Shown here: positions 8,381 to 46,589 of the stretch, piece by piece | Numbering within the stretch: the first letter of the stretch is position 1 | Layout: each line of letters starts with the position of its first letter | Origin: an uncultured Rhodospirillaceae bacterium | GTDB taxonomy: Bacteria; Pseudomonadota; Alphaproteobacteria; MPNO01; UBA2964 | Assembly: GCA_964492555.1 (NCBI GenBank) | Contig: CAZBKQ010000005.1 | Location: forward strand, 8,503-71,580 | Reading direction: 5' to 3' | DNA: 63,078 bases | Notes under the pieces: generated by a model | Told to the model about the DNA's origin: nothing | Seen by the model: only the letters and a program-made list of their open reading frames with translations | The model's database searches: none | Made by a program: the position numbers and the translations under genes

Positions 8381-9232
8381 ATGCAGATCAGAAAATTATC
8401 GGACGCGCTGGGCGCGGATGTATCCGGTATCGATGTCAGTGATATCGATGAGGCGACGGTTGAAGCCATTCATCAGGCGTTTCTGGAACATCTGATCCTG
8501 GTGTTCCGGGATCAGGATCTGACGCCGCAACAGCAGATCGCCTTCAGCGAACATTATGGTGAGGTGGAGGTCCATCTCGCCGCGGATCACCTGCATCCGG
8601 AGACCGACAAGGTCATTCTGATATCCAATAAGAAGGAAAATGGCCGCTATATCGGCGCGGTATCGGCGGGGGATTACTGGCATTCGGATTTGTCCTGCCA
8701 GGAACGCCCGAACCTCGCCTCCTTCCTGCTGGCGAAGGAACTGCCCCGGGAAGGCGGTGATACCGGGTTCTGTAATCAGTACAGGGCGCTGGAAACCTTG
8801 CCCGATGATCTGCGGCGCAAGATCGAGGGCCGCAAGGGCATACATACCTTCAACCGGATGCGCAATCCGCGCGTAAAGGTGCCGGAAATGCACAAGGGCG
8901 ACGCCCAGATGCGCTATGGCGACCGCGCGCCGCCCGATGGTATCCACCCGATCATCCGTACCCATCCGGAAACCGGCCGCAAGGCGCTGTTTGTCTCGCA
9001 TCGCTTCACGGTCGGGATCGAAGTTATGGCGGACGCGGAATCGCGGCTCATTCTGGATGCGATCTTCGAGCATCAGCTCAACGACGATCTGATCTACCGC
9101 CATAAATGGCGGCTCGGCGACATGGTCATGTGGGATAATCGCTGTACCACCCATCACGCCTATGGCGGGATTCCACCGGGACAGATACGCCACATGCACC
9201 GCACCTCGCTGATCGGCGACGTGCCGTATTGA
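8381..9232 (+). CDS. TauD/TfdA-family Fe(II)/2-oxoglutarate dioxygenase (paralog 1)
   Basis: 283 aa counted from the ATG at 8381 (the track ORF begins at TTG 8351). HxD iron motif in GDYWHSDLS, distal His in WDNRCTTHHA, and Arg in IRHMHRT. The layout is collinear with E. coli TauD. Confidence 0.88.
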   Translation: MQIRKLSDALGADVSGIDVSDIDEATVEAIHQAFLEHLILVFRDQDLTPQQQIAFSEHYGEVEVHLAADHLHPETDKVILISNKKENGRYIGAVSAGDYWHSDLSCQERPNLASFLLAKELPREGGDTGFCNQYRALETLPDDLRRKIEGRKGIHTFNRMRNPRVKVPEMHKGDAQMRYGDRAPPDGIHPIIRTHPETGRKALFVSHRFTVGIEVMADAESRLILDAIFEHQLNDDLIYRHKWRLGDMVMWDNRCTTHHAYGGIPPGQIRHMHRTSLIGDVPY

Positions 9233-9239
9233 GGAGGGA

Positions 9240-10091
9240 ATGATGCTTGTAACGCCTTTATCCGATGCGCTCGGCGCGGAAGTCACCGGGGTTGATCTGA
9301 CCGTCCTGGATGACGCCCTGTTTGAGAAAATTCACGCGGCCTTTCTGGAATATCAGCTGCTCTGTTTCCGCGATCAGGATCTGGCGCCGGATATCCATGT
9401 CTCGTTCAGCAAGCGGTTCGGGGCGATTGAATCGCGTCCCGACCGGCCCTTTACCTATCCCGGCATTCCCGAAGTGTCGGTGCTTTCCAACCGCACGGAG
9501 GCCGGGGAACCCGTCGGCGTCATTAATGCCGGTGATTTCTGGCACTCCGATCTTTCCTTCGGTCAAATTCCCTGCCGCACCACATTCCTGCACGCGCTGG
9601 AGGTGGCGGAGGAAGGCGGCGATACGGAATGGGCCAATATGTATACCGCCTATGACACGCTGCCGGAGGCGACACGAGCGCGGATCGACGGTTTGAAAGC
9701 CATTCACGTATTCGACCGCAGGCGTAACCCGCGCGCCCGGGTCGATGCGCAGTTCGAGAAAGAGGCCGACAAGGTCTATGGCATCCCCATTCCCGATGCG
9801 ACCCACCCGGTGGTGCGCACCCATCCCGAAACCGGCCGGAAAGCGCTTTATGTCTCGCCGCGTTTTGTCGTCGGGATCAAAGGGATGGATGATACGGAGG
9901 CGCAGAAGCTGCTGGACGAATTGTTCGCCCATCAGATACGGCCCGAATTCCGCTATCGGCATAAATGGCGCCAGGGCGATCTGCTTATGTGGGACAACCC
10001 CTGTTTAATTCACATCGGGCGGGGCAATATCAAGCCGCTCGGCATCCGCCATATGCACCGCACCATGGTGCTGGGCGAACAACCATATTGA
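9240..10091 (+). CDS. TauD/TfdA-family Fe(II)/2OG dioxygenase (paralog 2, tandem with paralog 1)
   Basis: 283 aa. Motifs GDFWHSDLS, GGDTEWAN, WDNPCLIHIG and IRHMHRT. RBS GGAGGG. Confidence 0.88.
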   Translation: MMLVTPLSDALGAEVTGVDLTVLDDALFEKIHAAFLEYQLLCFRDQDLAPDIHVSFSKRFGAIESRPDRPFTYPGIPEVSVLSNRTEAGEPVGVINAGDFWHSDLSFGQIPCRTTFLHALEVAEEGGDTEWANMYTAYDTLPEATRARIDGLKAIHVFDRRRNPRARVDAQFEKEADKVYGIPIPDATHPVVRTHPETGRKALYVSPRFVVGIKGMDDTEAQKLLDELFAHQIRPEFRYRHKWRQGDLLMWDNPCLIHIGRGNIKPLGIRHMHRTMVLGEQPY

Positions 10092-10098
10092 GAGAAAA

Positions 10099-11214
10099 AT
10101 GGAAGCCGCACTCAGATCGTTCGACCGTAACAAGCTGAAACTGGGATTTTTCGGGATGAACTGTTCCGGCGGGCTGTCGGCCACGCTGGTTCCCGAACGC
10201 TGGGAAGGGACCTGGGATGAAAATCTCAAGGCCGCGCGGCTGGCGGATGAGGCCGGGCTGGATTTTCTGTTACCGCTGGGGCGCTGGCGCGGCTATGGCG
10301 GGGAGACCGATCATAATGGCGGGGTGATGGAAACGCTGAGCTGGGCCGCCGGTATGCTGGCCTCGACCAGCCACATCATGGCGTTCAGCACGGTTCATGT
10401 GCCGCTGTTCAATCCTGTCGTGGCGGCGAAGCAGATGGTGACCGCCGACCAGATCGGCAAGGGACGGTTCGGGCTCAATATCGTCTGCGGCTGGAACCAG
10501 AAGGAATTCGACATGGCGGGCGTTGCGCTCAATGAGCATGAGCGCCGCTACGATCAAGGGCAGGAATGGGTCGATATCATGACCCGCGCCTGGACGGAGG
10601 ATGAACCGTTCGATTACGAGGGCGATTTTTATCAGGTCCGGGGTGTGCTCGCGAAACCGAAAATGTTTAAAGGCGGCAAGCCGCTGATGGTATGCGCCGC
10701 CAATTCGGGCACCGGGCGGGAATTCGCCGCGCGGAACTGCGACATGATGTTCACCGGCATCAAGACAGAGATCGATGAGATTTCAGCGGACATCGGCGGG
10801 TTGAAGGAAACGGCCAGATCCTACGGGCGGGAAATCGGCGTATTCACCAACTGCTATGTCGTCTGCCGCCCGACCCGGAAAGAGGCGGAGGAATATCACG
10901 AATATTACGCGGTGGAGATGGCGGACAAGGAAGCCGCCGCGACGCTGGTCGAAGGGCGCAACGTGCGCGGGCGCTATGACAGCCTGCCGGAATATATGCT
11001 GAAAAATCTGCATCAGCGCGCGGCCGGCGGGAACGGCGCTTTCCCGATTGTCGGCGACCCGGACGATGTCGCGGACTTGCTGATCCGGCTGCATGAGCAG
11101 GGGATCGACGCCTTTGCCATGGGCTTCGCCAACTATGTGGAACATTTCCCCTGCTTCCGGGATGAGGTTTTGCCCCGGCTGGTGAAGGCTGGCGTGCGGG
11201 CGGAGCCGCTCTGA
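10099..11214 (+). CDS. LLM-class (luciferase-like) flavin-dependent monooxygenase, SfnG/RutA-like size class
   Basis: 371 aa. N-terminus LKLGFFGMNCSGGL...LADEAGLDFLLPLGRWRGY and LNIVCGWNQKEF are typical of FMNH2-dependent LLM enzymes. Confidence 0.82.
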   Translation: MEAALRSFDRNKLKLGFFGMNCSGGLSATLVPERWEGTWDENLKAARLADEAGLDFLLPLGRWRGYGGETDHNGGVMETLSWAAGMLASTSHIMAFSTVHVPLFNPVVAAKQMVTADQIGKGRFGLNIVCGWNQKEFDMAGVALNEHERRYDQGQEWVDIMTRAWTEDEPFDYEGDFYQVRGVLAKPKMFKGGKPLMVCAANSGTGREFAARNCDMMFTGIKTEIDEISADIGGLKETARSYGREIGVFTNCYVVCRPTRKEAEEYHEYYAVEMADKEAAATLVEGRNVRGRYDSLPEYMLKNLHQRAAGGNGAFPIVGDPDDVADLLIRLHEQGIDAFAMGFANYVEHFPCFRDEVLPRLVKAGVRAEPL

Positions 11215-11216
11215 AT

Positions 11217-12311
11217 TTACTCCCGCAAACCCAGCCGCTGAAGCCTCGGCAGGATTTCTCCGGCCAGCCATTCCATGTCGTTCACGTAATTGACCAGACC
11301 GACGGCAATGCCGTTGAGCCCCGCTTCGGAAAGTTGTCTGAACCGTTCCGCGGCGTCGTCATAGGAACCGACGATGGGGTAGGTGCCGGTACCGCTGATT
11401 ATCGCTTCTTTCATTTTCGCGAGTTGCGGGCCGGAGGTTGACCCGCCCTTTGTCCGGATTTGCACCGTATGTTCGGCGGCTTCCCAGTCGCCATTCTCAT
11501 AGACCAGATAGTGATAATATTCCTCGGCTTCTTTTGTCGTCGGACGGCAGATCAGATGGCCGCTGGCATAAATGCCCGCGCCGTTCTCCCCCCGTTCGGC
11601 GCGCAGATCGGCGACCTTCTGCGGCAAATCCTGCAATTCCCGGATAGAGGTAAACAGCCCGTCCGCGTGACGCGCGGCGAAACCGCGCCCGGCGGGCGAA
11701 TTCCCGGCGCTGATGATCATCGGTGCGCCGCCGTTCCAGGGCTTTGGTTTGCACAGCACGCCCTTGAGGTCGAAATAATCGCCTTTGAATTCGAACGGCT
11801 CGTCTTCGGACCACAAGCGTTTGACCAGGCTCAGCCATTCCTCGGCATAGGCATAGCGTTCGTCGTGATCGCGGATCCGCACGCCGAACATTTCGTGCTC
11901 GCCGATATTCCATCCGGCGACGATGTTGAGCCCGAACCGCCCTGCGCCGATCAGGTCGGCGGTCACCATCTGGTTTGCGGCAAAGACCGGGTTGATGAGA
12001 GAGACATGAACCGTGCCGAAGATATTGATGCGGCTGGTCGAGGCCAGCATGCCGCAGGCCCAGCTCAGCGTCTCGAAGCTCGCTCCGGCGGTGTCGGTTT
12101 CGCCCTTGTAACCGTGCCAGCGCCCGATGGGCAGGAGAAACTCGACCCCGGCCTCATCGGCCAGTTTTGCGGCTTTCCGGTTATTCTCCCAGCTCGCGTC
12201 CCAGCGCTCGGGCACCTTGCTCATTGTGAGCCCGCCGGAGCAATTCATACCGAACAGCCCGATACGGAACTTGTTCGGGCCAAAAATGGGTGTGTCGCGA
12301 CGGTCGGTCAT
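11217..12311 (-). CDS. LLM-class flavin-dependent monooxygenase (paralog, tail-to-tail with 10099-11214)
   Basis: 364 aa. Motifs FRIGLFGMNCSGGL...LADEAGVEFLLPIGRWHGY and LNIVAGWNIGEH. Its stop lies 2 nt from the stop of the convergent paralog. Confidence 0.82.
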   Translation of the reverse strand: MTDRRDTPIFGPNKFRIGLFGMNCSGGLTMSKVPERWDASWENNRKAAKLADEAGVEFLLPIGRWHGYKGETDTAGASFETLSWACGMLASTSRINIFGTVHVSLINPVFAANQMVTADLIGAGRFGLNIVAGWNIGEHEMFGVRIRDHDERYAYAEEWLSLVKRLWSEDEPFEFKGDYFDLKGVLCKPKPWNGGAPMIISAGNSPAGRGFAARHADGLFTSIRELQDLPQKVADLRAERGENGAGIYASGHLICRPTTKEAEEYYHYLVYENGDWEAAEHTVQIRTKGGSTSGPQLAKMKEAIISGTGTYPIVGSYDDAAERFRQLSEAGLNGIAVGLVNYVNDMEWLAGEILPRLQRLGLRE

Positions 12312-12320
12312 GAGGTTATT

Positions 12321-12968
12321 TTAGTCACTGTTGGTTTCCCCGGAAACCCGTCCCGTCACGACATAAAGCGGGTCGGTCTCGAACGGGTTGGGGGAGATAT
12401 CGGTGACCTCCGGTGTTTCGAACCCGCCGGCATTGTTGAAATACCAGCCGACGACCCTTGAATGGTCGACCGGGCCGGAGGCCGCGCGCCAGACGGCGAC
12501 GGCCTTGGTCGGGAACATCCGGTTGGAAAAGGACACCGCGACCAGCCCGCCGGGCTTTACCACCCGGGCGATTTCGCCGAAGACCTCCAGCGGGTGGACC
12601 AGATATTGAACCGACACGGCGATGGTGCAGGCGTCGAACTCATTATCCCCAAAGGGCAGGGTAGGATTTGTTGTGAGGTCGTGGACCAGCCATTCGGAAA
12701 GCTGTTTGTTTTCGGCGAGTTCCACCGCGTTCATGCCGAGGCCGCAGACCCGGTTATAGGTGACATCCATCGGCAGATGGCTGACCCAGGCGGACATCAG
12801 ATCGAGAATTTCGCCGCCTTCGGGCAGGTTATCGCGGTACCAGTCCGCTAACGCCGCGCAGGCGGCGTCATCGATATGGGTGACCAGACGCGGCATTTCG
12901 TAGAACACGGCGTCGTCGTCTTCATCGACGCGGGCGACATGGGCGGGGGTGAGTTGATCATCGGTCAT
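12321..12968 (-). CDS. Class I SAM-dependent methyltransferase
   Basis: 215 aa. Motifs ILDLMSAWVSHL, FDACTIAVSVQYL and VVKPGGLVAVSF (methyltransferase type 11-like). It lies 9 nt upstream of the LLM gene on the same strand. Confidence 0.75.
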   Translation of the reverse strand: MTDDQLTPAHVARVDEDDDAVFYEMPRLVTHIDDAACAALADWYRDNLPEGGEILDLMSAWVSHLPMDVTYNRVCGLGMNAVELAENKQLSEWLVHDLTTNPTLPFGDNEFDACTIAVSVQYLVHPLEVFGEIARVVKPGGLVAVSFSNRMFPTKAVAVWRAASGPVDHSRVVGWYFNNAGGFETPEVTDISPNPFETDPLYVVTGRVSGETNSD

Positions 12969-13085: not shown

Positions 13086-13937
13086 ATGCAGATCACACCG
13101 CTTTGCGACGCGCTTGGCGCGGAAATTACCGGTGTCGATGTGTCATCGATCAGCGATGACGATCTTGCCGAAATAAAACAGGCATTTCTGGATTACTATG
13201 TTGTTGTCCTGCGCGATCAGAAACTGACGCCGGAGGAACATATCGAATTCAGCCGCAAGATGGGGCCGTTGGAGTTTCATATCTCCAAGAAATTTCTGCT
13301 GGAGGACAAGCCGGAAATTCTGGTGCTGTCGAACCGTAAGAAAAACGGCGAATATATCGGGGTCGAAAATGCCGGGGATTACTGGCATTCGGATTTGTCC
13401 TACATGGAGAAGCCGAGCCTGGGGTCACTGTTGTACGCGCTGGAAATCCCTCCGGAAGGCGGCGATACGGAATGGTCGAACCAGTACAAGGCCTATGAGA
13501 CCCTGCCCGAGGAAACGCGCAGGAAGATCGAGGGCAAACGCGCTATTCATTCCTTCAACCGGGCGCGCAACAAGCGCGTCCATATTCCGGAGCATTCGAA
13601 GGAGGGCGCGGCGGAACGCTACGCCAAGATCAGCCCGCCCGACGCCTATCACCCGATCGTGCGCACCCACCCGGAAACCGGGCGCAAGGCGCTGTTTGTT
13701 TCACCGCGTTTTACCATCGGGATAGAGGGGATGGACGATGCGGAGGCGCAGCCGCTTCTGGATGAGTTGTTTGCGCATTCCATCAAACCGGAATTCATCT
13801 ATCACCATAATTGGCGGTTGGGCGATTTGTTGATGTGGGATAATCGCTGCCTGCTGCATCTGGCCTGCAGGGGTATTCCGGAAGGGCAGATCCGCCATAT
13901 GCACCGCACCACGCTTTCGGGCGACGTGCCGGTATAG
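13086..13937 (+). CDS. TauD/TfdA-family Fe(II)/2OG dioxygenase (paralog 3)
   Basis: 283 aa. Motifs GDYWHSDLS, GGDTEWSN, WDNRCLLHLA and IRHMHRT. RBS GGAGGG. Confidence 0.88.
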   Translation: MQITPLCDALGAEITGVDVSSISDDDLAEIKQAFLDYYVVVLRDQKLTPEEHIEFSRKMGPLEFHISKKFLLEDKPEILVLSNRKKNGEYIGVENAGDYWHSDLSYMEKPSLGSLLYALEIPPEGGDTEWSNQYKAYETLPEETRRKIEGKRAIHSFNRARNKRVHIPEHSKEGAAERYAKISPPDAYHPIVRTHPETGRKALFVSPRFTIGIEGMDDAEAQPLLDELFAHSIKPEFIYHHNWRLGDLLMWDNRCLLHLACRGIPEGQIRHMHRTTLSGDVPV

Positions 13938-13950: not shown

Positions 13951-14802
13951 ATGGAAATTAATCCGTTGCCTGTCGGGTTCGGCGCGGAGATCACCGGGGT
14001 CGATCTCGCCAAAATCGACGATGCGCAATATGCCGATTTGCGTAACGCGCTGCTGACCCATCAGTTGCTGATCGTGCGTGATCAGGATCTGGCGCCCGCA
14101 GACCAGATGGCGTTTTCCAAACGGTGGGGGCAGCTTGATATTCATGTGCAGATCAACGATCAGCATCCGGACTTCGAGGAAATCCTGGTGCTGACCACGA
14201 AAATGGAGGACGGCAAATATATCGGCGCGCCGCATGCCGGGGATTACTGGCATTCCGATCTCTCCTATGTGGAGGAGCCGACCTTCTGCACCATCCTGCA
14301 CGCCGTTCAGGTGGCCGATGAAGGCGGCGATACCGCCTTCGCCGATATGTACCGGGCCTATGAAACCCTGCCGGAAGAAACCAGGGAGCGGATTGCCGAT
14401 CTCAAGGCGCGCCATTCCTATGACCGGCTTCTGAACCCCCGTGTGGCGATCCCCGATACACACGCGGCGGTGGCCAAGGAACGCTATAGCGACCGAAGCC
14501 CGCCGCCGGCCGTCCATCCGGTGGTGCGCACCCATCCGGAAACCGGCCGCAAGGCGCTATATGTGACGGAGCGTTTCACCCTCACTATCGAAGGCATGGC
14601 GGAAGATGAGTCCGAGGAATTGCTGCAGGAACTCTTCGCCAACGCCGCCCGGCCCGAAAACACCTATCGCCATAAGTGGGAAAAGGGCGATCTGGTGATG
14701 TGGGATAATCGTTGCATGATGCATCTGGCGTGTGGCGGTGTGCCGAAAGGCCAGATCCGCCATATGCACCGGACCATCGTCCGGGGCGACCACCCTTATT
14801 GA
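13951..14802 (+). CDS. TauD/TfdA-family Fe(II)/2OG dioxygenase (paralog 4, tandem with paralog 3)
   Basis: 283 aa. Motifs GDYWHSDLS, GGDTAFAD, WDNRCMMHLA and IRHMHRT. RBS GAGGAG. Confidence 0.88.
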   Translation: MEINPLPVGFGAEITGVDLAKIDDAQYADLRNALLTHQLLIVRDQDLAPADQMAFSKRWGQLDIHVQINDQHPDFEEILVLTTKMEDGKYIGAPHAGDYWHSDLSYVEEPTFCTILHAVQVADEGGDTAFADMYRAYETLPEETRERIADLKARHSYDRLLNPRVAIPDTHAAVAKERYSDRSPPPAVHPVVRTHPETGRKALYVTERFTLTIEGMAEDESEELLQELFANAARPENTYRHKWEKGDLVMWDNRCMMHLACGGVPKGQIRHMHRTIVRGDHPY

Positions 14803-14830: not shown

Positions 14831-15259
14831 ATGGACGACGAAGCCCCGAAACAGCCGAGCAAGCCCCGTATCCGCCACACCATGCTGCGGGTCGCCAACC
14901 TCGATGAATCCGTGAAGTTCTACGAGGAGGTTCTGGATATGAAGGTCTTCCGGCGAAGCGACAATGAAAGCCAGAAATATTCGGTGGTTTTTGTCGGGTA
15001 TGAGGATGAGGAAACAAACCCGGCGATTGAGCTGACCTATAACTGGGGTGTCGACGAGCCTTATGACAAGGGCACCGGCTATGGGCATGTCGCTATCGGC
15101 GTGCCAGATATTTACGAGGTCTGCCGCCGGGTCGAGGCGCGCGGGATGGAAGTGCCGCGCCGACCGGGGCCGCTGAAGGGGCGGGGGCCGAACGGTCCGG
15201 TGATCGCCTTTATCCGCGACCCCGACGGCTATTCGATAGAGCTCGGCGAACGGCCGTAA
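14831..15259 (+). CDS. gloA: Lactoylglutathione lyase (glyoxalase I)
   Basis: 142 aa. Nearly collinear with E. coli GloA: HTMLRV.NL..S..FY, ELTYNWGV, GYGHVAIGV, FIRDPDGYSIEL. Confidence 0.88.
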   Translation: MDDEAPKQPSKPRIRHTMLRVANLDESVKFYEEVLDMKVFRRSDNESQKYSVVFVGYEDEETNPAIELTYNWGVDEPYDKGTGYGHVAIGVPDIYEVCRRVEARGMEVPRRPGPLKGRGPNGPVIAFIRDPDGYSIELGERP

Positions 15260-16867: not shown

Positions 16868-16868
16868 T

Positions 16869-17630
16869 ATGGGCAGGCTTGAGGGACGGGTGGCGATCAT
16901 AACCGGCGGCGCGCAAAGCATCGGCGCGGCGTTCGCCAAGGGGATGGCGGCGGAAGGCGCGAAGGTGGTTATCGCCGATCTGTCGCCGGCGGATGACATC
17001 GTCAACATCATCAAACAGGCGGGTGGCGAGGCCATGTCCGTGACCGCCGACGTAACCGATGAGGCGGCCTGCGAAAACATGGTGGCAGAGGCCGTGAAGG
17101 CTTATGGCAAGCTGGATATTCTGGTCGCCAATGCCGGTATCTGGGTACAGCTCGGCCGGGAGGACGCGACGGAAATCGACGGTGATACCTGGGACAAGGT
17201 GATGAACGTCAACGTCAAGGGTACCTGGCTGTCCGCCAAGGCGGCGATCCCGCAAATGGTCGAACAGGGTTACGGCAAGATCATCACCCTGACATCGACC
17301 CGCGCGATCAAGGGTGGGGCCAATATGCTACATTATGACGCCTCAAAGGGGGCGATCATGGCGATGACGAAAAGCCTTGCCCGCGAATGGGGCCCGAAGG
17401 GCATCCGCGTAAATTCCATCGCGCCCGGCGCGACCGATACCGAATTCAGCCTGGCCCATATGGATGCGGTGCAGGAGGAACGGCGCAAGCTGACCCCGCA
17501 GACGCGGTCGATCAAACGCGCGCAGGACGCGGAAGACCTGGTCGGGACCTGTATCTTTTTGTCATCCGGCGCGTCCGATTTCATGACTGCCCAGACTGTC
17601 CCCGTCGAAGGTGGCGCAGTCTTCTGGTAG
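16869..17630 (+). CDS. SDR oxidoreductase, paralog 2
   Basis: 253 aa from the ATG at 16869, 1 nt after the UbiD-3 stop (the track ORF 16755 includes a spurious overlap). Motifs TGGAQSIG and YDASK. Confidence 0.9.
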   Translation: MGRLEGRVAIITGGAQSIGAAFAKGMAAEGAKVVIADLSPADDIVNIIKQAGGEAMSVTADVTDEAACENMVAEAVKAYGKLDILVANAGIWVQLGREDATEIDGDTWDKVMNVNVKGTWLSAKAAIPQMVEQGYGKIITLTSTRAIKGGANMLHYDASKGAIMAMTKSLAREWGPKGIRVNSIAPGATDTEFSLAHMDAVQEERRKLTPQTRSIKRAQDAEDLVGTCIFLSSGASDFMTAQTVPVEGGAVFW

Positions 17631-21227: not shown

Positions 21228-21344
21228 TTCGATACGTGCCCCAAGCGGCGCATCAAGCGGTAAATTTTCATTGGTGACAAATCGCGATCTGTAATGCGGT
21301 ATAAGTTAATTTTAGAATCACATGCGGAAAAAACCAAAGCCATC

Positions 21345-24835: not shown

Positions 24836-24864
24836 AATTTATCTCTCGGTGCGATTTCGAAAAA

Positions 24865-25974: not shown

Positions 25975-25985
25975 GGATGGGTTCC

Positions 25986-39069: not shown

Positions 39070-39092
39070 ATGCCCGGGACGTGCCCGGGCAT
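39070..39092 (-). terminator. Intrinsic terminator after T6 (same stem as 35679-35702)
   Basis: 9-bp stem atgcccggg / cccgggcat with a 5-nt loop. On the minus strand it is followed by tcagtttt. Confidence 0.6.
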
Positions 39093-39149: not shown

Positions 39150-40925
39150 TTAGGCCGCTTCACCCCTGCGCCAGGTGATGATATCGACCAGCGCCGGTTT
39201 GCCGGATTTCACAACCTTGAGCGCTTCGCGGACAGCCGGCTGGATATCGGCAGGGTTCATGATCGGCCCTTCGGCCCACCAGTCCATGCCGCGGGCGATA
39301 TGGGCGAAGTCGGGCGCCGGGCCTTCCAGATCCATGCCGATATAGGCGCGTTCCGGATCGGTGCCTCGCTTGTTGGCGACCGAGATCTGATGCGCCCAGT
39401 CATTGTAATAGGCGCGGTTGTTGTACATCAGGCACAGCATGGGGATTTCGTACTTGGCGGCGATCCACAATCCACCGAGATCAAACATCAGATCGCCGTC
39501 GGGCTGGAGATTGACCACCACCTTGTCGGTGTCCTTGTAGGCCAGCGCCACGCCAAGCGACATGCCGAACTGCGTCGCCGTGCCGAGCTCGCGTCCCGGA
39601 TGACGGTAGGGCTTGTCGAAATCCCATATCTTGCGGACCCAGTCCTTCAAAGTCCCGGCGGACAGCACCCAGTCCTCGTCCTTGATGACCTCCCATATTT
39701 CGGCGGCCATGCGGGCTTCGTGCATCGGGTCGTGATCCCAGAATTTTTTCACGTCCTCCTGCCACTTGTCCCACTGGGCGTGGTGCTTGTCGCTGACGGT
39801 TTTTGTGCGGTCCGCGATCTTCTGCTGCAGCGCCGCATCGCCCGCGATCTTTTCCTTGCAGGCTTCGGTCAGGGCCGGGATGGCGTTCGCGGTGTCGGAC
39901 AGAATCCGCATATCCCAGTTATGATGCTTGTTGTAATCGGTCGCCCACTTGGAAATCTCGATATCGGCAAATCCGATATCGATCCATTTGCAGTCCGGCG
40001 TGGTAATCGCCTCCACTTGGCGGGTTTCCCAGTTGGGCTTGTGCGACCCCCGGGTCCAGTCCACCACGTCCAGCGCGCAGACCACATCCGCGCCCTTGAA
40101 TGCATCACCATGCATGGAAACGCTGAGCGGATGCTTGTTGGGGAAGCCGAGGCGCTTATTGATATCGAATACGCCGCAGCCGAGTGTTTCAGCCAGTTCC
40201 ACCGTATCGTCGAACCCGATCGGCGCACGGGCGGCATATTCCGTGAGCAGGATCGGATAGTCGGCGGCCAGCAACATATCCGCGGCCTCTCCGATCAGCT
40301 TGGGATCGGCGGCGAGACGCGGCGGCACCTTGATTGCCTCGGGCGGCGGAATTTCGATCTCCTCGGTCAGTTCGCCTTCCTGCAGCCCGGCGTCATAGAC
40401 CATGTAAACCGGACCCTGCGGTTCGGTCATCATGATGGAATAGGCGCGGGCGAAACTGTCCGGCACGCCATGAATGGTGCCGGGCTGATAATCCCACTTG
40501 GTGTAATCGCGGATGGCGGACCCCTGCGCGAAGGCGGTGTGAATCCAGTCGATAAACGGCCGGCGGAGTTTTTCATCCATCGGGCCGGTCGCGCCCATCA
40601 GGAAAATCGGGCAGCGGTCGATATAGGCGTAATAAACGGCCAAGGGCGCGTGCAGCAGCCCGACCACGTTATGGACGATGGCGGGCATCGGCTTGCCGAT
40701 CGCCTTGGCGTAGCCGTGCGCGATTTGCACCGCCAGCTTTTCGTGGTTGCACAGGATCATCGGCGGGTCGTCCTCGCCGTAATTCACCAGGCTGTCATGC
40801 AGCCCGCGATAGCTCGCGCCGGGGTTCAGCGGGATCGCCGGAAAATCGTATGCCTTGATCAGATCGACGATGATGTCTGACTGATAGCGTGTATTGGCCT
40901 TGCGGATAAACTGGTCTTCGGACAT
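39150..40925 (-). CDS. ThDP-dependent enzyme T6, tandem paralog of T5
   Basis: 591 aa. Motifs NPGASYRGLHDSLVNYG, CNHEKLAV, RRPFIDWIH and PDGDLMF...LMYNN. Confidence 0.85.
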   Translation of the reverse strand: MSEDQFIRKANTRYQSDIIVDLIKAYDFPAIPLNPGASYRGLHDSLVNYGEDDPPMILCNHEKLAVQIAHGYAKAIGKPMPAIVHNVVGLLHAPLAVYYAYIDRCPIFLMGATGPMDEKLRRPFIDWIHTAFAQGSAIRDYTKWDYQPGTIHGVPDSFARAYSIMMTEPQGPVYMVYDAGLQEGELTEEIEIPPPEAIKVPPRLAADPKLIGEAADMLLAADYPILLTEYAARAPIGFDDTVELAETLGCGVFDINKRLGFPNKHPLSVSMHGDAFKGADVVCALDVVDWTRGSHKPNWETRQVEAITTPDCKWIDIGFADIEISKWATDYNKHHNWDMRILSDTANAIPALTEACKEKIAGDAALQQKIADRTKTVSDKHHAQWDKWQEDVKKFWDHDPMHEARMAAEIWEVIKDEDWVLSAGTLKDWVRKIWDFDKPYRHPGRELGTATQFGMSLGVALAYKDTDKVVVNLQPDGDLMFDLGGLWIAAKYEIPMLCLMYNNRAYYNDWAHQISVANKRGTDPERAYIGMDLEGPAPDFAHIARGMDWWAEGPIMNPADIQPAVREALKVVKSGKPALVDIITWRRGEAA

Positions 40926-41091: not shown

Positions 41092-43428
41092 ATGGTTCAG
41101 AAATTCGGCATCGGACAGCCCGTTCCCCGTTATGAAGACCCGCGCCTGTTGACCGGCGGCGGACGGTATATGGACGACAATACGCTGCCGCGTCAGACGC
41201 GCGCCTATATTCTGCGCTCTCCCTTTGCGCACGCGAAGATCCGTTCCATGGACATTTCAGCGGCCAAGGCGGCCCCCGGGGTGATCGAGGTACTGACCGG
41301 TCAGGATTATGTCGATGACGGGTACGGCATTCTGGAATGTACCCCAAAACGCAAGCGCCGTGACGGTACCCCGATGTATGAGCCCGCCCGCCGCGTCCTG
41401 GTGCTGGACGAGGTCAAGATGGTAGGCGATTACGTCGCCATGGTGATCGCCGAGACGCTGGAGCAGGCGAAAGACGCCGCCGAGCTGATCGAGGTCGATT
41501 ACGAACCGCTGCCCGCGGTTTCCACCCCTTATGAGGCGGCACAGCCCGGCGCGCCCAAGGTGTGGGATGAGTCCGAAGATAATATCTGTTTCGTCCATCT
41601 GGTGGGCGACAAGGAAGCCACCGACGCGGCGATCGCCAAGGCGGCCCATGTGGTGAAGGGGCGTTTGCCGGTGAACCGCAGCGCGCATGCCACGATGGAG
41701 CCGCGCGGCGCGATCGGCGATTACGACGCGGCCCGGGATTTCTGGACGCTCTATACCGCGGTTCATTACCCGTGGCAGGTCCGCGAAGAACTCTGCAACA
41801 AGATTTTCGACGTTCCGGAAAGCAAGATGCGGGTGGTCTGCGGCGATATGGGCGGCAGTTTCGGTCTGCGCGGCGGCACCTATCAGGAAGTCGTGCTGGT
41901 GCTGTGGGCGTCGAAACGCGTCGGGCGGCCGGTGAAATGGGTATGCGAACGTTCCGAAGGGTTCATGAGCGATCATCACGGGCGCGATGTCCATTGGGAA
42001 GGCGAGATCGCGTTGGATGAGAATTTCAGGTTTCTCGGGGTGCGGGCGCAAAGCTGGACCAACGTCGGCGCCTATCTTGCCTCCAAGGGCACGCTGCCGC
42101 CGGTCGCCAATCTCGGGACCATGGCGGGGACATATGATATTCCGGCGATGCATTGTGATGTCTCCGGCGTCTATACCAACACCAACCCGATTTGCCCGTT
42201 CCGGGGCAACGGGCGTCCGGAAGCCTCCTATGTGATCGAACGGCTGATCGACCTCGCGGCGGATGAGCTGGGCGTCGATCCGGCGGAGCTGCGCCGTCGC
42301 AACCAGATCGCGCCGGACGCTATCCCCTACAAGACCGCTTTGGTCTTTACCTATGACAGCGGCAATTTCGGGGACAATCTCGAAAAGGCGCTGGAGATGG
42401 CGGATTATGACGGGTTCGCGGGGCGTAAGGCGGAATCGGAAAAGAACGGCAAGCTGCGCGGCATCGGGATTTCCAACTCTATCGAGCGCGCGGCGGGGCC
42501 GAGCCTGGAACAGGTGCAAATCCGTTTCGATTCCTCGGGCACGGTACAGCTGAATGCCGGCACCAGCCAGCAGGGGCAGGGGCATGAGACGATCTACAAG
42601 CAGATCATGAATGAAACGCTCGGTATTGATCCCGATATCGTCAGCTTTGCTGAGGGGGATACCGCACTGCTGGCTTTTGGCGGCGGCACGGGTGGGTCGC
42701 GCTCGGCCACCATCGGCGGCAGCGCCGTGCTGAAATGCTCGGAAAAAATCATCGAAAAGGCGACAAGGATCGCCGCGCATCAGCTGGAAGCCGCCGAAGC
42801 CGATATCGAATTTTCGGAAGGCACTTTCACTGTCGCCGGCACCGACCGGACGATCAGTCTGACCGAAGTGGCGAAGGCGTCCTACAAGCCGGGCACATTG
42901 CCGCCTGATATTGAGCCTGGACTGGACGCGGTATTCACCTTTGAAGCCACGGCGGAAAACTTTCCCAATGGCTGTCATATCTGTGAGGTGGAGATCGACG
43001 AGGACACCGGCGTGATTGATGTCGTCCGCTATAACGTGGTGGATGATGTCGGGACGGTGCTGAACCCGTTGACCCTGAAGGGGCAGATACAGGGCGGCGT
43101 CGTCCATGGCGTCGGCCAGGCCTTGCTGGAAGAAATCGTATTCGACGGCGATAGCGGACAGCTGATCTCCGGGTCCTTCATGGATTACGCCATGCCGCGC
43201 GCCGATAATCTTTCCTTTATCGAGGTCCAGTCCAACCCGTGCCCGACAGCGACCAACCCGTTGGGCGTGAAAGGCGCGGGCGAGGCGGGAACGGTCGGCG
43301 CGGTGCCCGCCGTGATGAACGCGGTGGTCGATGCGCTTTCGGTTTACGGCATCCGGCATATCGATATGCCGGCGACGCCCGCGAAAGTCTGGCAGGCGAT
43401 ACAGGAGGCGAAGGCGGCCGCCGCCTGA
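41092..43428 (+). CDS. Xanthine dehydrogenase / aldehyde oxidase-family molybdopterin-binding large subunit (CoxL-like, not a form-I CO dehydrogenase)
   Basis: 778 aa. Motifs GQPVPRYEDPRLLTGGGRY, PFRGNGRPEA and GVKGAGEAGTVGA. The AYxCSFR motif of true CO dehydrogenases is absent. Confidence 0.85.
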   Translation: MVQKFGIGQPVPRYEDPRLLTGGGRYMDDNTLPRQTRAYILRSPFAHAKIRSMDISAAKAAPGVIEVLTGQDYVDDGYGILECTPKRKRRDGTPMYEPARRVLVLDEVKMVGDYVAMVIAETLEQAKDAAELIEVDYEPLPAVSTPYEAAQPGAPKVWDESEDNICFVHLVGDKEATDAAIAKAAHVVKGRLPVNRSAHATMEPRGAIGDYDAARDFWTLYTAVHYPWQVREELCNKIFDVPESKMRVVCGDMGGSFGLRGGTYQEVVLVLWASKRVGRPVKWVCERSEGFMSDHHGRDVHWEGEIALDENFRFLGVRAQSWTNVGAYLASKGTLPPVANLGTMAGTYDIPAMHCDVSGVYTNTNPICPFRGNGRPEASYVIERLIDLAADELGVDPAELRRRNQIAPDAIPYKTALVFTYDSGNFGDNLEKALEMADYDGFAGRKAESEKNGKLRGIGISNSIERAAGPSLEQVQIRFDSSGTVQLNAGTSQQGQGHETIYKQIMNETLGIDPDIVSFAEGDTALLAFGGGTGGSRSATIGGSAVLKCSEKIIEKATRIAAHQLEAAEADIEFSEGTFTVAGTDRTISLTEVAKASYKPGTLPPDIEPGLDAVFTFEATAENFPNGCHICEVEIDEDTGVIDVVRYNVVDDVGTVLNPLTLKGQIQGGVVHGVGQALLEEIVFDGDSGQLISGSFMDYAMPRADNLSFIEVQSNPCPTATNPLGVKGAGEAGTVGAVPAVMNAVVDALSVYGIRHIDMPATPAKVWQAIQEAKAAAA

Positions 43429-43438: not shown

Positions 43439-44335
43439 ATGCTGATGATCGATAAACCCGTCTGTATGGAAGACGGGGAGGAGCCTCTTTACGGATCGCT
43501 GATCTGGCCGGGAGATAACGAAAACGGCGACGCGGTGCTGATCTGGGCGGGTTCCGGCCCGACCGACCGGGACGGTAACGCGGCGGGACTGCAGAATAAC
43601 AGCATCAAGATTTTGGCGCAGGCGCTCGGCGGGGCGGGTTATGCCGTGCTGCGGACGGACAAGCGCGGGATCGGTGAAAGTCAGGACGCGATGGGCGATG
43701 AATCCGCCATCCGTTTTGGGACCTTCGTCGACGATATGTGTGCCTGGGCCGCCTGGCTGAAACGCGAGGTAAAGCCGAAGCGGCTTTTCCTGCTTGGGCA
43801 CAGCGAAGGCGCGCTTGTCGCCACACTGGCGGCGCAGCGGCTGGAGGCCGACGCACTGATTCTGGTCGCCGGTATCGGGTTTCCGCCGGCGCAGCTTTTG
43901 CGGCGGCAATTGGACAGTCCCGATGTCGCGCTCGCGCCCGACGATCTGCGAACGATTTTCGAGATCATGACGGCGCTGGAAGACGGCAAGACGGTTCCCG
44001 ATATCCCCGAGGAGCTGATGGGGCAGTTCCGTCCGTCGGTGCAGCCTTATCTGATTTCCTGGTTCGCCTATGATCCTGCGGCGGAGCTCGGCAAGGTCGA
44101 GATCCCGACGCTGGTGGTTCAGGGCACGCTGGATTTACAGGTTTCGATGGAAGACGCGGAGCGTCTGGCCGCATCACGCGATGGCATTCGTCTGGCGCGC
44201 ATTCAGGACATGAACCATGTGCTGAAATCGACGACCGATTACAACCCCGATAATTACGGCACCTATAACAAACCCCTCCTACCATTGGCGGAGGGGCTGT
44301 TTTCCGAAATCACGGGATTTATGGATTCGGTTTAG
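43439..44335 (+). CDS. Alpha/beta-fold hydrolase
   Basis: 298 aa from the ATG at 43439 (the track ORF 43331 overlaps the previous gene). Nucleophile elbow GHSEG in LLGHSEGALVA. Confidence 0.8.
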   Translation: MLMIDKPVCMEDGEEPLYGSLIWPGDNENGDAVLIWAGSGPTDRDGNAAGLQNNSIKILAQALGGAGYAVLRTDKRGIGESQDAMGDESAIRFGTFVDDMCAWAAWLKREVKPKRLFLLGHSEGALVATLAAQRLEADALILVAGIGFPPAQLLRRQLDSPDVALAPDDLRTIFEIMTALEDGKTVPDIPEELMGQFRPSVQPYLISWFAYDPAAELGKVEIPTLVVQGTLDLQVSMEDAERLAASRDGIRLARIQDMNHVLKSTTDYNPDNYGTYNKPLLPLAEGLFSEITGFMDSV

Positions 44336-44362
44336 GGCGCAAGGCGCCTGGTTTGATTTTCT

Positions 44363-45439
44363 CTATGCCACCGGGTTGGGGCCGAGATGCGGGAAGGCCG
44401 AATGTTCATGCGGCAAGCGCACCGGCATCGCGTCAGTGACATATTCCGGCGCCAACTGATCGAGCGATGTCACCCCGAGCAGACCCATCGTTGTGGTGAT
44501 TTCCCGCTCCATCAACTCCAGGCACTTCACCAGCCCTTCCGATGCCCCGGCGCCCAGCGCCCAGGCCTGAAGCCGGCCGATCGCCGCGTAATCGGCGCCC
44601 ATCGCGATCGCCTTGATGACGTCGGTGCCGCGCGTGAATCCGCCATCGATAATGATCTTGGCCTTGCCGTTCACCGCCGCGGCAATCTCCGGCAGGGTCT
44701 GGATATTGCCCAGCACATGGTCGAGCTGCCGCCCGCCATGGTTGGAGATATAGATCGCATCGACCCCGTGCTCGACGGCGAGCGCGGCGTCTTCCGCCGT
44801 CATGATGCCCTTGACGATAAACGGCCGGTCGCCGATCTCATCCTGGATCATTTTCACCGTGTCCCAGGTGATCTTTTTCTGCCAGTCGCGGGCGGGCACG
44901 CGGCGCAGGGCAAGCTGTGAGGGGTTGAGCCGTTCGCGGTTGCCGTAGAACGCGCTGTCGACCGTCAGGGTCACGGAGTGATAGTTCGATTTGACCACCC
45001 GTTTGACCAGGTCCTTGATCCAGTCATCATCGCCCCGGACATAAATCTGGAAGCTTTTCGGATGGGGGCTGTTATCGGCGACTTCCTCGAGGCTGGGCTC
45101 GGTCACGGTCGACAGGAAATTGACCGTCCCGAACTGTTCCGCGGCGTCGTCGACATCGAGCGCGCCCTTGGGCGAGAAACGATGGATGCTGCCCATCGGC
45201 GCCATCAGCACCGGCATGCGCAACTTGTGCCCGAAGAAATCGCTGGAGGTGTCGATTTCGCTGACATCGCGGCAGATACGCGGACGAAAGGCCAGGGAAT
45301 CCAGCGCCATCCGGTTGCGGCGTAAAGAGGTCTCGCTCTCGGCGGCGCCGCAGACGTAATCCCAGTTATCCTGATCCATATTGCGCCGGGCCATCAGGAT
45401 CATGTCGTGCATGGTCAGAAAATCGGCATGGGTGGTCAT
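44363..45439 (-). CDS. FMN-dependent alpha-hydroxy-acid dehydrogenase/oxidase, H2
   Basis: 358 aa. Motifs ISNHGGRQLDH and IIDGGFTRGTDV. Confidence 0.88.
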   Translation of the reverse strand: MTTHADFLTMHDMILMARRNMDQDNWDYVCGAAESETSLRRNRMALDSLAFRPRICRDVSEIDTSSDFFGHKLRMPVLMAPMGSIHRFSPKGALDVDDAAEQFGTVNFLSTVTEPSLEEVADNSPHPKSFQIYVRGDDDWIKDLVKRVVKSNYHSVTLTVDSAFYGNRERLNPSQLALRRVPARDWQKKITWDTVKMIQDEIGDRPFIVKGIMTAEDAALAVEHGVDAIYISNHGGRQLDHVLGNIQTLPEIAAAVNGKAKIIIDGGFTRGTDVIKAIAMGADYAAIGRLQAWALGAGASEGLVKCLELMEREITTTMGLLGVTSLDQLAPEYVTDAMPVRLPHEHSAFPHLGPNPVA

Positions 45440-45476
45440 CGGTATCTCCCTGTTGACTTATTTCTTAGAAGGCGGC

Positions 45477-46589
45477 TCAGGTCAGCCGGCCGCCGGGTAT
45501 ATGCGGAAAGGCGCTCATTTCGTGGCTCGGCCCGACCGGGCGCGTCTTGGTCAGATAGGACGGGTTCAGCTGGTCAAGCGAGGTGACGCCCAGCAAGCCC
45601 ATCGCGATCTCGATTTCCGTCTTCAGGATATCGAGGCAATTCATCAGGGCCTGCTGTCCGCCGGCGGCGAGCGCGAAGGCCTGCAACTTGCCGATCCCAA
45701 CGGCCCGGGCGCCGAGCGCGACCGCCTTGACGATGTCGGTTCCCCGCATGAAACCGCCATCGACATAGACTTCCGCCTTTCCGCCGACCGCCTCGACGAT
45801 ATCCGGCAAGACGCCGATACTGCCGCGGTCATGGTCCAGCTGGCGGCCGCCATGGTTTGACACATAGATTGCACTGGCGCCGTGATCGATGGCCATCAAC
45901 GCATCCTCGACGGTGCCGATCCCCTTGATGATCATCGGCCCGTCCCAGATGCGGACCATGTCGTCCCAGATATCCCAGCTCAGCCCGGCGAGATATTCGC
46001 GTCCGGCGGAGTTACGCCGCGTCGGCGGTTCCCAGCCATTCATCTTTTGCCGTTCGCGGTTGCTGTAGACGCAGGTGTCGACGGTGACGACCAGGGCCTT
46101 GTAATTGTGATCCTTGACCCGGCCGAGCAGTTCCTCGATCCATTCGCGCCCGCCCCGCACATAGATCTGATAGAATTTGGGATGCAGCGTGTTAAGGCCG
46201 ATTTCCTCAAGGCTCGGCTGTGTATGGCCGCTTTGAATGTTGATCAGCCCAAGTTCTTCCGCCGCTTCGTCGCTGCATAATGATCCTGCCGGGGTGACGA
46301 TTTGCAGGGATGCCACCGGCGCCAGAAAGACCGGCATCGATGACGGGTGGCCCAGGATGGTTGTCGACATGTCGACCTTCGACACGTCGCGCAGGACACG
46401 CGGAATAAAGGCGAGCGAATCCAGCGCGTGTCTGTTTCGCCGCATGGAGGTTTCGGTCTCGCTGCCGCCGGCGAGATAGTCCCATACCGGCCCGGTCGCG
46501 TTGCGCCGCGCGCGGACAATGATTTCGTGATTGGTCTGAAATTCCCACTCCATCGCGGGCACGGCTCCGAACTTGTTGGATGTTGGCAA
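45477..46589 (-). CDS. FMN-dependent alpha-hydroxy-acid dehydrogenase/oxidase, H3 (tandem with H2)
   Basis: 370 aa. Motifs VSNHGGRQLDH and YVDGGFMRGTDI. The true start could be the internal Met at MEWEF. Confidence 0.85.
   Translation of the reverse strand: MPTSNKFGAVPAMEWEFQTNHEIIVRARRNATGPVWDYLAGGSETETSMRRNRHALDSLAFIPRVLRDVSKVDMSTTILGHPSSMPVFLAPVASLQIVTPAGSLCSDEAAEELGLINIQSGHTQPSLEEIGLNTLHPKFYQIYVRGGREWIEELLGRVKDHNYKALVVTVDTCVYSNRERQKMNGWEPPTRRNSAGREYLAGLSWDIWDDMVRIWDGPMIIKGIGTVEDALMAIDHGASAIYVSNHGGRQLDHDRGSIGVLPDIVEAVGGKAEVYVDGGFMRGTDIVKAVALGARAVGIGKLQAFALAAGGQQALMNCLDILKTEIEIAMGLLGVTSLDQLNPSYLTKTRPVGPSHEMSAFPHIPGGRLT

Follow-up and report, generated by a model that had tools for sequence, protein, structure and literature searches.

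Conserved pairing of 2-hydroxy-acid oxidoreductase and thiamine diphosphate enzyme genes in a probable catabolic island of an uncultured marine alphaproteobacterium

In peroxisomal alpha-oxidation, phytanoyl-CoA 2-hydroxylase (PHYH) and 2-hydroxyacyl-CoA lyase (HACL1) work on coenzyme A (CoA) thioesters, and the route has no flavin mononucleotide (FMN) step. The mandelate pathway of Pseudomonas putida, as described by Tsou et al. (1990, cited in PMC6946804; see also PMC8193235), comprises (S)-mandelate dehydrogenase (mdlB), benzoylformate decarboxylase (BFDC; mdlC), and benzaldehyde dehydrogenase (mdlD). In the CsiD-LhgO route of glutarate catabolism, an Fe/2-oxoglutarate (2OG) dioxygenase alpha-hydroxylates a free carboxylate, and the resulting 2-hydroxy acid is then oxidized to the 2-oxo acid (PMC5974017, PMC6265302). 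Here, we compare these systems with a 63,078-nucleotide (nt) stretch of DNA (contig CAZBKQ010000005.1 of assembly GCA_964492555.1; hereafter, the window). It comes from an uncultured marine bacterium, a Rhodospirillaceae-like alphaproteobacterium, and probably lies within a catabolic island some 60 kb in size. A preliminary description had proposed that co-amplified genes for TauD-family Fe(II)/2OG dioxygenases, FMN 2-hydroxy-acid dehydrogenases, and thiamine diphosphate (ThDP) enzymes encode a hydroxylate, oxidize, decarboxylate cycle, with PHYH/HACL1 and MdlB/MdlC as its models. Its counts were confirmed with Pfam and NCBIfam: six TauD proteins (PF02668), three FMN_dh proteins (PF01070; H1 to H3), and seven three-domain ThDP enzymes (T1 to T7), the sixth TauD and the seventh ThDP gene lying at or past the end of the range that it covered (8381-46589).

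We find that the pairing of an FMN_dh gene with a following ThDP gene is conserved across related and unrelated genomes. The window probably belongs to a modular island for carboxylic acids (probably aromatic or polycarboxylic), with the H/T modules serving as mandelate-like units for one-carbon shortening that are built on an uncharacterized BFDC-like clade. In the proposed route, carboxylic acids, most likely aromatic or polycarboxylic, would be imported by TctABC/TctC transporters. The H/T modules consist of T2-H1-T3-T4 under a LysR-family regulator, with OCD-T1, T5/T6, and H2/H3 close by. An FMN-dependent H enzyme would oxidize an (S)-2-hydroxy acid to the 2-oxo acid, and a ThDP enzyme would then release CO2 to give an aldehyde one carbon shorter. 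Oxidation of this aldehyde to the acid would here probably fall to a CoxL-type molybdenum (Mo) enzyme, and in cultured relatives to an NAD(P)-dependent aldehyde dehydrogenase. The TauD genes fall in a separate conserved module, TauD-TauD-GloA-UbiD-SDR, which is accompanied by flavin monooxygenase genes. Gene content, gene order and its conservation, and the conservation of catalytic residues are observations; from them we infer which substrates are used, which way flux runs, and what the Mo enzyme does.

Coupled FMN oxidoreductase and ThDP genes

Genes were called from codon-position GC, and about 54 window genes were scanned against Pfam and NCBIfam. The comparison set consisted of 80 species-level GTDB loci (~20 kb each) around ThDP homologues, annotated against the window proteins. 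As had been described, T2, H1, T3, and T4 form an operon; its intergenic gaps are 14, −4, and 28 nt. The negative gap is an ATGA overlap, in which the ATG start of T3 (at 31923) runs into the stop codon of H1 (31924-31926). A LysR gene is divergent from T2 across a 258-base pair (bp) spacer. The order T2-H1-T3-T4 is kept in L005, L007, L008, L010, L011, L092, and L093, and the OCD-T1 pair in L008, L010, L011, and L092. Metagenome-assembled genomes (MAGs) with 76 to 93% T3 identity retain T2-H1-T3-T4-(variable slot)-T5/T6-Mo-hydrolase, often with OCD-T1 upstream; the slot, occupied by VOC2 in the window, is variable among relatives. Marine alphaproteobacteria at 55 to 59% identity carry a compact backbone of TctC(−), UbiD-SDR-UbiD, (T2), FMN_dh-ThDP, FMN_dh(−), Amidohydro_2, PrpD, and a gene of the phosphoenolpyruvate (PEP)-mutase family. 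This is the order of the window, but without the TauD block, T1, T5/T6, and the Mo gene. The two genes adjoin each other in 12 of the 80 loci, with FMN_dh immediately ahead of ThDP in 11 of the GTDB species loci and in Xanthobacter sp. KR7-225.

The cultured Xanthobacter sp. KR7-225 (L026) has the order FMN_dh, ThDP, aldehyde dehydrogenase (Aldedh). Plasmids of cultured bacteria also carry ThDP homologues, at 46 to 50% identity, in informative neighborhoods. In Rhizobium sp. WYJ-E13, the ThDP gene is followed by an alpha-hydroxy acid oxidase gene, with an aldehyde dehydrogenase upstream, and in Acidovorax carolinensis the series TctC, ThDP, aldehyde dehydrogenase is found near an alpha-hydroxy acid oxidase gene. 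Clusters in Phaeobacter and Thioclava contain an aldehyde dehydrogenase, the ThDP gene, an overlapping 2-hydroxyacid dehydrogenase, a Rieske oxygenase, and an alpha-hydroxy acid oxidase; the Phaeobacter cluster adjoins pcaGHCD and pcaF, and the Marinibacterium homologue sits inside a phthalate operon (pht3-ophA1-pht4-pht5). The recurrence of an aldehyde dehydrogenase beside the ThDP gene in cultured strains suggests an aldehyde product. Together, these neighborhoods support a route from 2-hydroxy acid through 2-oxo acid and aldehyde to acid, set within aromatic-acid catabolism. The MdlB/MdlC analogy drawn previously gains support from the same pairing, from the H1-T3 coupling, and from the aldehyde dehydrogenases.

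Other neighbors were also noted in these loci. The Xanthobacter FMN_dh/ThDP/Aldedh genes adjoin EutA and a fused EutBC ethanolamine ammonia-lyase (L026, 1338-13295), and in a marine MAG, T2 likewise has an EutA gene upstream (L005, 2609-4405). Directly upstream of the ThDP gene on the Phaeobacter and Thioclava plasmids is a nadC-annotated, quinolinate phosphoribosyltransferase-like gene (L096, 8029-8880; L098, 6044-6835), which is an odd partner for a catabolic decarboxylase.

The catalytic residues of the FMN enzymes are intact. H1 to H3 are short proteins (358 to 370 amino acids, aa) that keep Tyr24, Tyr129, Asp157, Arg164, Lys230, His254, and Arg257 (glycolate oxidase numbering), and SNHGGRQ is present. 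Trp108, which limits substrate size in glycolate oxidase, is replaced by Val in H1 and H2 and by His in H3. These smaller residues suggest that the substrates of H1 to H3 are larger than glycolate.

Among the ThDP enzymes, T1 and T3 to T6 form a clade of their own that appears uncharacterized and BFDC-like. Their best NCBIfam matches are PRK08327 and then BFDC, both far under the cutoffs, and BFDCs are their best characterized relatives in PDB as well as in NCBIfam. T2 is a member of PRK08327 (NF006203; 641 bits against a cutoff of 456), and T1 and T3 to T6 fall outside it (218 to 245 bits). All of T1 to T6 keep the cofactor-activating Glu (Glu47 equivalent) and the "LHS/VHN" motif of BFDC His70. 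The ThDP-binding motif is canonical in T1 to T4 and T7; T5 and T6 have PDGD in place of GDGD. T7 is AHAS-like, lacks the His70 equivalent, and is unrelated to the T1 to T6 clades. Members of the clade were found in marine and soil Proteobacteria and in Binatia. The T3 family is very large: of 8,000 candidate proteins that were scored, 7,995 reached E ≤ 1e-10. Matches number more than 590 in GTDB species representatives, and metagenome proteins add thousands. We found no solved structure and no curated family model for the clade, and no paper on it or on the cluster in literature on the gene combination, on PRK08327, or on Phaeobacter and mandelate. T3/T4 and T5/T6 are kept as tandem pairs, so hetero-oligomers are possible. 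The T and H enzymes, each present as several paralogs, probably accept different ranges of substrates. Between T5 and T6 lies a GC-rich hairpin with a perfect 9-bp stem (39070-39092), which could be a terminator or attenuator between the two paralogs.

An aldehyde-oxidase-family Mo subunit and a glyoxalase I (GloA) had also been reported, and both are present (Table 1). The Mo protein is a CoxL-type large subunit whose best NCBIfam matches are the glyceraldehyde dehydrogenase alpha subunit and the carbon monoxide dehydrogenase large subunit, both below cutoff. Neither of the CoxL active-site loops, AYxCSFR and AYRGAGR, was found in it. Its pairing with an alpha/beta hydrolase gene is kept in L005, L007, L008, L092, and L094. 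CoxL-like genes lie near the ThDP gene in 16 of the 80 loci, and the one soil locus that was checked (L049, 6036-9750) has the complete L-S-M set, as an operon that diverges from the ThDP gene. The role of aldehyde oxidizer proposed for this subunit is therefore plausible.

The arrangement is no mis-assembly, because identical or collinear contigs come from independent assemblies. An identical copy of the T3 protein occurs on ENA, JGI, and Logan contigs, with equal gene order wherever these extend past T3. The region recurs at 92 to 93% protein identity in MAGs labelled Rhodospirillaceae, and two overlapping loci of GCA_038146885.1 (L087 and L008) match the gene order of the window all the way from its first UbiD to the alpha/beta hydrolase. 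Paralog identities are 58% for T3/T4, 60% for T5/T6, ~33 to 35% for T1 against T3 to T6, and ~22 to 26% for T2 and T7 against each of the other T proteins (~22% for T7). H1 to H3 are 46 to 51% identical in pairs, TauD1 to TauD4 48 to 57%, and TauD5 ~30 to 34% identical to TauD1 to TauD4; TauD6 has no BLAST-detectable similarity to TauD1 to TauD5. Each paralog also has orthologues in related MAGs (77 to 95% identity). The duplications are thus old. A recent amplification is ruled out by identities of 46 to 60% within subgroups, and the term "co-amplified" was an overstatement, as identity between ThDP subgroups is only ~24 to 35%.

The TauD module and competing explanations

In TauD1 to TauD5, the iron triad (His/Asp/His) is intact, as are the Arg that binds 2OG and the Arg that binds the substrate anion (His99, Asp101, His255, Arg266, and Arg270 in TauD numbering). 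The equivalent of the anion-binding His70 of TauD is kept in TauD1, TauD3, and TauD4 only, and TauD2 has only the anion Arg. None of the five keeps the taurine amine ligands (Tyr73 and Asn95 equivalents). With anion ligands kept and amine ligands absent, the substrates are probably anionic but not taurine. Sulfonates, sulfate esters, and carboxylates are inseparable by sequence here, because the anion His and Arg are common to sulfonate- and carboxylate-using enzymes. Scores against the taurine dioxygenase model NF007104 are 121 to 229 bits (cutoff, 313), with no match for TauD6. In PDB, TauD and the phenoxypropionate dioxygenase RdpA are about equally similar to TauD1 to TauD5 (E 1e-52 versus 1e-49), which carry a 6-residue insertion ahead of the iron motif. 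TauD6 has an HxE iron motif and homologues of 361 aa. The homologues of TauD4 on plasmids reach no more than 45% identity and have generic annotations.

These genes have their own conserved context. Loci of TauD4 homologues contain TauD-TauD, then a slot with luciferase-like monooxygenase (LLM), nitroreductase, and methyltransferase genes, then TauD-TauD-GloA-UbiD-SDR, and later TauD(−)-SDR-UbiD. The full module is present in GCA_038146885.1, GCA_964646825.1, and GCA_002720855.1, and the order TauD(−), SDR, UbiD (the TauD5 part) is kept in L087, L088, and L091. An 812-kb JGI contig has a shorter module without this trailing part; it is followed by TctC, TctA, and SDR, with no ThDP or FMN_dh gene within 10 kb. 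TauD genes lie near ThDP homologues in only 2 of the 80 loci, against six in the window, where their density is thus far above background. They adjoin H/T genes only within this clade, and GloA, UbiD, and SDR are their constant partners.

Several observations weigh against a mandelate-like reading of the H/T modules. The T proteins are not BFDC orthologues: they score 101 to 145 bits with the BFDC model NF005485 (cutoff, 493), are ~25% identical to BFDC, and match BFDC structures in PDB at E ~1e-23. BFDC Ser26 corresponds to Ala, His281 is not alignable, and no member of the T clade has been characterized so far. The window has no mandelate racemase, no Fe-S (CoxS) or flavin adenine dinucleotide (FAD; CoxM) subunit gene, and no open reading frame (ORF) with a 2Fe-2S motif, and its scanned genes include no NAD(P)-dependent aldehyde dehydrogenase (PF00171). 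In one MAG whose T3 is 85% identical (L009), H1 is an 81-aa remnant (1924-2235) while T2-T3-T4 is intact. Most non-marine homologues lack an adjoining FMN_dh gene and have heterogeneous neighbors: a Pfam census of 114 direct ThDP neighbors in non-marine loci gave a mixed list, including ABC transporters, TctC, SLT, and GST, and no single enzyme partner emerged. Finally, at least three other clade genomes have the TauD block next to the H/T block, and a fourth has both on one contig, so a functional link within the clade is possible. In GCA_002720855.1, the TauD module and the T block are contiguous, with three unrelated genes between them. Among the non-marine neighbors, we also noted a GBBH-like_N (DUF971) domain in five direct ThDP neighbors; from ORF size (126 to 164 aa, directly downstream of ThDP), the carriers are guessed to be in L040, L045, L049, L076, and L085 (~11750-12520).

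Contiguity of the TauD and H/T blocks counts in favor of the previously proposed cycle, in which TauD alpha-hydroxylates free acids, H oxidizes, and T decarboxylates, giving iterative one-carbon shortening of acids that resist beta-oxidation. All three families lie inside 40 kb, and TauD6 and H3 are divergent across a 224-bp spacer, an arrangement also present in GCA_038116945.1. The anion residues noted above make a non-taurine acidic substrate plausible, and CsiD-LhgO is a precedent for Fe/2OG alpha-hydroxylation followed by oxidation. However, what is conserved around the TauD genes is GloA, UbiD, SDR, and genes for flavin monooxygenases or nitroreductases, not H or T, and the module occurs without either on the JGI contig. 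TauD genes are also rare near ThDP loci and absent from the marine H-T modules at 55 to 59% identity, and no TauD gene was found in any cultured-strain cluster carrying the H/T/aldehyde-dehydrogenase triad. A 66%-identical TauD6 homologue lies beside a molybdopterin oxidoreductase and defense genes, not H3-H2. We therefore regard an initial TauD hydroxylation as quite unlikely; it is the oxidize-decarboxylate half of the cycle that is supported, through its coupling, its recurrence, and the aldehyde dehydrogenases of cultured bacteria. A function other than decarboxylation for the T clade is unlikely. The T enzymes might be C-C lyases, carboligases, or hydrolases that act on H products or on other ketones from aromatic or alicyclic breakdown, for example by benzaldehyde-lyase-like acyloin cleavage, glyoxylate-carboligase-like ligation, or hydrolysis of cyclic 1,2-diones. 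T2 matches benzaldehyde lyase and formolase nearly as well as BFDC, and for T4, plant AHAS and BFDC are equally good matches. Three or more different ThDP enzymes per operon are hard to square with decarboxylation alone, and Binatia, too, have T2-like genes paired with T-clade genes (L047 and L057). Yet the recurrent aldehyde dehydrogenase speaks for an aldehyde product, T1 to T6 retain the BFDC-type His70 that AHAS-like T7 lacks, and they have the activating Glu that is missing from glyoxylate carboligase.

Organosulfonate degradation was likewise considered, with TauD and LLM enzymes releasing sulfite, H and T acting like sulfolactate dehydrogenase, sulfopyruvate decarboxylase, and Xsc, and GloA clearing oxoaldehyde products. 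The TauD proteins do match taurine dioxygenase best and the LLMs dimethylsulfone monooxygenase SfnG, a nitroreductase-type gene (a possible flavin reductase) occupies the LLM slot of relatives, and glyoxalase I is kept directly after TauD3-TauD4. Such a role is nevertheless highly improbable: every TauD and LLM score is under its family cutoff, the T proteins reach 58 to 120 bits with the Xsc model (cutoff, 676), and the scanned window genes include no sulfite exporter, sulfite dehydrogenase, phosphotransacetylase, or sulfonate ABC transporter. A putative binding protein (19417-20412) is instead a cytoplasmic homologue of 4,5-dihydroxyphthalate decarboxylase. The genes might also have no functional link at all, this being a paralog-rich region whose order persists among related MAGs through shared ancestry. 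The modules do come apart in more distant genomes, the island has variable slots and rearrangements, and H1 has decayed in L009. We consider this very improbable, because H and T are translationally coupled and the association of H and T with aldehyde dehydrogenase reappears in unrelated lineages (Xanthobacter, Rhizobium, Acidovorax, and Roseobacters). The mandelate-like reading of the H/T modules is thus the one that we favor.

Gene content of the island

The features of the window are collected in Table 1. It encodes four UbiD proteins, three Amidohydro_2 proteins (ACMSD/LigW group), an AMDase/EutA-like protein, and a 4,5-dihydroxyphthalate decarboxylase homologue; about 16 of the 54 genes come from families whose characterized members are mainly decarboxylases. 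The window also encodes two PrpD-family proteins, a PEP-mutase/isocitrate-lyase-family protein, an FAD_binding_2 oxidoreductase, and TctC and TctCBA transporters. Among the scanned genes, there is no CoA ligase, CoA transferase, ring-cleavage dioxygenase, UbiX (prenylated-FMN synthase), or sulfite-handling gene. Rfam and tRNA scans of the window gave no match, thiamine pyrophosphate riboswitch included, and a promoter scan found sites no more numerous than in shuffled controls.

Table 1. Positions, strands, and assignments of features in the window.
Feature	Position	Strand	Assignment
TauD1	8381-9232	+	PF02668 E 1e-64; TauD/TfdA-family Fe(II)/2OG dioxygenase
TauD2	9240-10091	+	PF02668 E 1e-70; TauD/TfdA-family Fe(II)/2OG dioxygenase
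Luciferase-like monooxygenase (LLM)	10099-11214	+	PF00296; nearest model SfnG, below cutoff
Luciferase-like monooxygenase (LLM)	11217-12311	−	PF00296; nearest model SfnG, below cutoff
Methyltransferase	12321-12968	−	PF08241
TauD3	13086-13937	+	PF02668; first gene of TauD3-TauD4-GloA-UbiD3-SDR2 module
TauD4	13951-14802	+	PF02668
GloA, glyoxalase I	14831-15259	+	TIGR00068, 140.8 bits (cutoff, 120)
UbiD3	15374-16867	+	Pfam/NCBIfam
SDR2	16869-17630	+	Pfam/NCBIfam
AMDase/EutA-like protein	17640-18404	+	PF17645
Conserved ORF, 294 aa	18525-19409	+	No Pfam or PDB match
4,5-Dihydroxyphthalate decarboxylase-like protein	19417-20412	+	PDB 9jp7, E 1.9e-58, full length
TauD5	20430-21227	−	PF02668
GNAT	21294-21872	+	Pfam
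SDR3	21943-22701	+	Pfam
UbiD4	22795-24444	+	Pfam
Small ORF, then OCD/mu-crystallin gene (24865-25974)	block 24545-27848	−	Pfam/NCBIfam
T1, ThDP enzyme	25986-27848	−	Pfam/NCBIfam, three-domain
LysR-family regulator	27926-28831	−	PF00126 + PF03466; divergent from T2
T2, ThDP enzyme	29090-30811	+	NF006203, 641 bits (cutoff, 456)
H1, FMN 2-hydroxy-acid oxidoreductase	30826-31926	+	PF01070 E 4e-102
T3, ThDP enzyme	31923-33731	+	Below all cutoffs; best PRK08327, then BFDC
T4, ThDP enzyme	33760-35550	+	Below all cutoffs; best PRK08327, then BFDC
VOC2, VOC/glyoxalase-fold protein	35857-36261	+	PF00903; 34.7 bits, below glyoxalase I cutoff of 120
T5, ThDP enzyme	37214-38992	−	Three-domain ThDP
T6, ThDP enzyme	39150-40925	−	Three-domain ThDP
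CoxL-type Mo hydroxylase large subunit	41092-43428	+	Pfam; PDB 8uem, 535 bits
Alpha/beta hydrolase	43439-44335	+	Pfam
H2, FMN 2-hydroxy-acid oxidoreductase	44363-45439	−	PF01070 E ~1e-101
H3, FMN 2-hydroxy-acid oxidoreductase	45477-46589	−	PF01070 E ~1e-101; start uncertain, 46589 (TTG) or 46550 (ATG)
TauD6, divergent Fe/2OG dioxygenase	46814-47899	+	PF02668 E 2e-31
T7, AHAS-like ThDP protein, PRK08199 family	58032-59708	−	NF006052, 850 bits (cutoff, 539)

Decarboxylase-type genes are very dense at 3561-24444 and 47983-52520, and the UbiD-SDR pairs look translationally coupled. The three Amidohydro_2 proteins are 62 to 79% identical to each other and lie in a stretch of 55% GC. The sole Pfam match of the 4,5-dihydroxyphthalate decarboxylase-like protein is weak and sub-threshold, to a phosphonate/NMT1-type binding protein; assignment as a sulfonate or phosphonate binding protein was ruled out by the full-length match to 9jp7 and the lack of a signal peptide. 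Homologues of this protein lie on both sides of the ThDP gene in nine soil alphaproteobacterial loci and adjoin it in four more. The 294-aa ORF is kept in GCA_038146885.1. The right flank (52531-62326) holds a PrpD-like gene, TctCBA, a PEP-mutase/isocitrate-lyase-family protein, AHAS-like T7, a cupin, and a second PrpD, which scores 856 bits, just below the 950-bit cutoff, with a 2-methylcitrate dehydratase model of high-GC Gram-positives. From its gene content, this flank looks like a polycarboxylate unit.

The island shows that decarboxylase paralogs are concentrated in an abundant uncultured marine lineage, which bears on the turnover of carboxyl-rich dissolved organic matter. A speculative extension, to which we give little credence, is that the island is a dedicated system of these marine Rhodospirillaceae-like bacteria for stripping carboxyls and side chains from carboxyl-rich, beta-oxidation-resistant dissolved organic matter, with TauD products shortened iteratively by H/T. 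The tally behind it is 16 decarboxylase-family genes, six Fe/2OG oxygenases, three FMN oxidases, and a Mo hydroxylase. Of broader use, the recurrent 2-hydroxy-acid oxidase and aldehyde-oxidizing partners give the ThDP clade a testable function: its members may be aryl- or alkyl-glyoxylate decarboxylases of a new family. Cultured proxies for such work are available in Phaeobacter inhibens, Xanthobacter sp. KR7-225, and Rhizobium sp. WYJ-E13.

Comparison with described pathways

The pathway logic of the H/T modules is that of the mandelate pathway, and on present evidence no new kind of pathway is revealed. The earlier suggestion of a new bacterial system is accordingly weakened, two known routes being close to it: the mandelate pathway and CsiD-LhgO (PMC5974017, PMC6265302). 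The main novelty is instead an uncharacterized, multiplied, and widespread ThDP clade, here partnered with a Mo hydroxylase.

The PHYH/HACL1 analogy, by comparison, fails on family membership and on the lack of CoA chemistry in the window. What is shared is the use of an Fe(II)/2OG oxygenase and a ThDP enzyme in one system that would shorten acids by one carbon. PHYH, however, belongs to the Pfam family PhyH (PF05721), and all six window dioxygenases are PF02668, with none in PF05721. The T proteins are not 2-hydroxyacyl-CoA lyase orthologues, as they score 59 to 110 bits with NF058623 (cutoff, 600), and the window has no CoA ligase or transferase that such a route would need.

CsiD-LhgO is a bacterial precedent for the Fe/2OG alpha-hydroxylation and subsequent oxidation that had been proposed for the window. 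It differs in its enzymes, because CsiD is in another Fe/2OG family and LhgO is an FAD enzyme rather than an FMN_dh, and in its outcome, because its product, 2-oxoglutarate, enters central metabolism without ThDP decarboxylation. With the TauD/TfdA/RdpA/AtsK group, TauD1 to TauD5 share the fold, the HxD...H triad, the 2OG Arg, and the substrate-anion Arg. They depart from it in scoring below the taurine dioxygenase cutoff, in lacking the amine ligands, and in their insertion. Their arrangement as tandem pairs with GloA, UbiD, and SDR was not found described.

The Roseobacter clusters (the Marinibacterium pht operon and the Phaeobacter pca plasmid region) share with the window a T-clade homologue at 46 to 50% identity and a homologue of 4,5-dihydroxyphthalate decarboxylase. 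They have Rieske oxygenases, alpha-hydroxy acid oxidases, and aldehyde dehydrogenases of their own. Unlike these clusters, the window lacks both a ring-cleavage dioxygenase and the pca or pht oxygenase genes, and it has many more decarboxylase paralogs together with the TauD module.

The mandelate pathway is matched in the window by an FMN 2-hydroxy-acid oxidoreductase gene beside a ThDP 2-oxo-acid-decarboxylase-like gene in one operon. An aldehyde-oxidizing enzyme is close by, in the form of an NAD(P) aldehyde dehydrogenase in the clusters of cultured relatives, which are tied to protocatechuate or phthalate catabolism. The substrates would likewise be free acids rather than CoA esters. The differences lie in T proteins that are not BFDC orthologues and have Ala at Ser26, in three ThDP genes per operon and six in the region, in short H proteins, in the absence of a mandelate racemase, and in a CoxL-type Mo subunit that takes the place of the aldehyde dehydrogenase.

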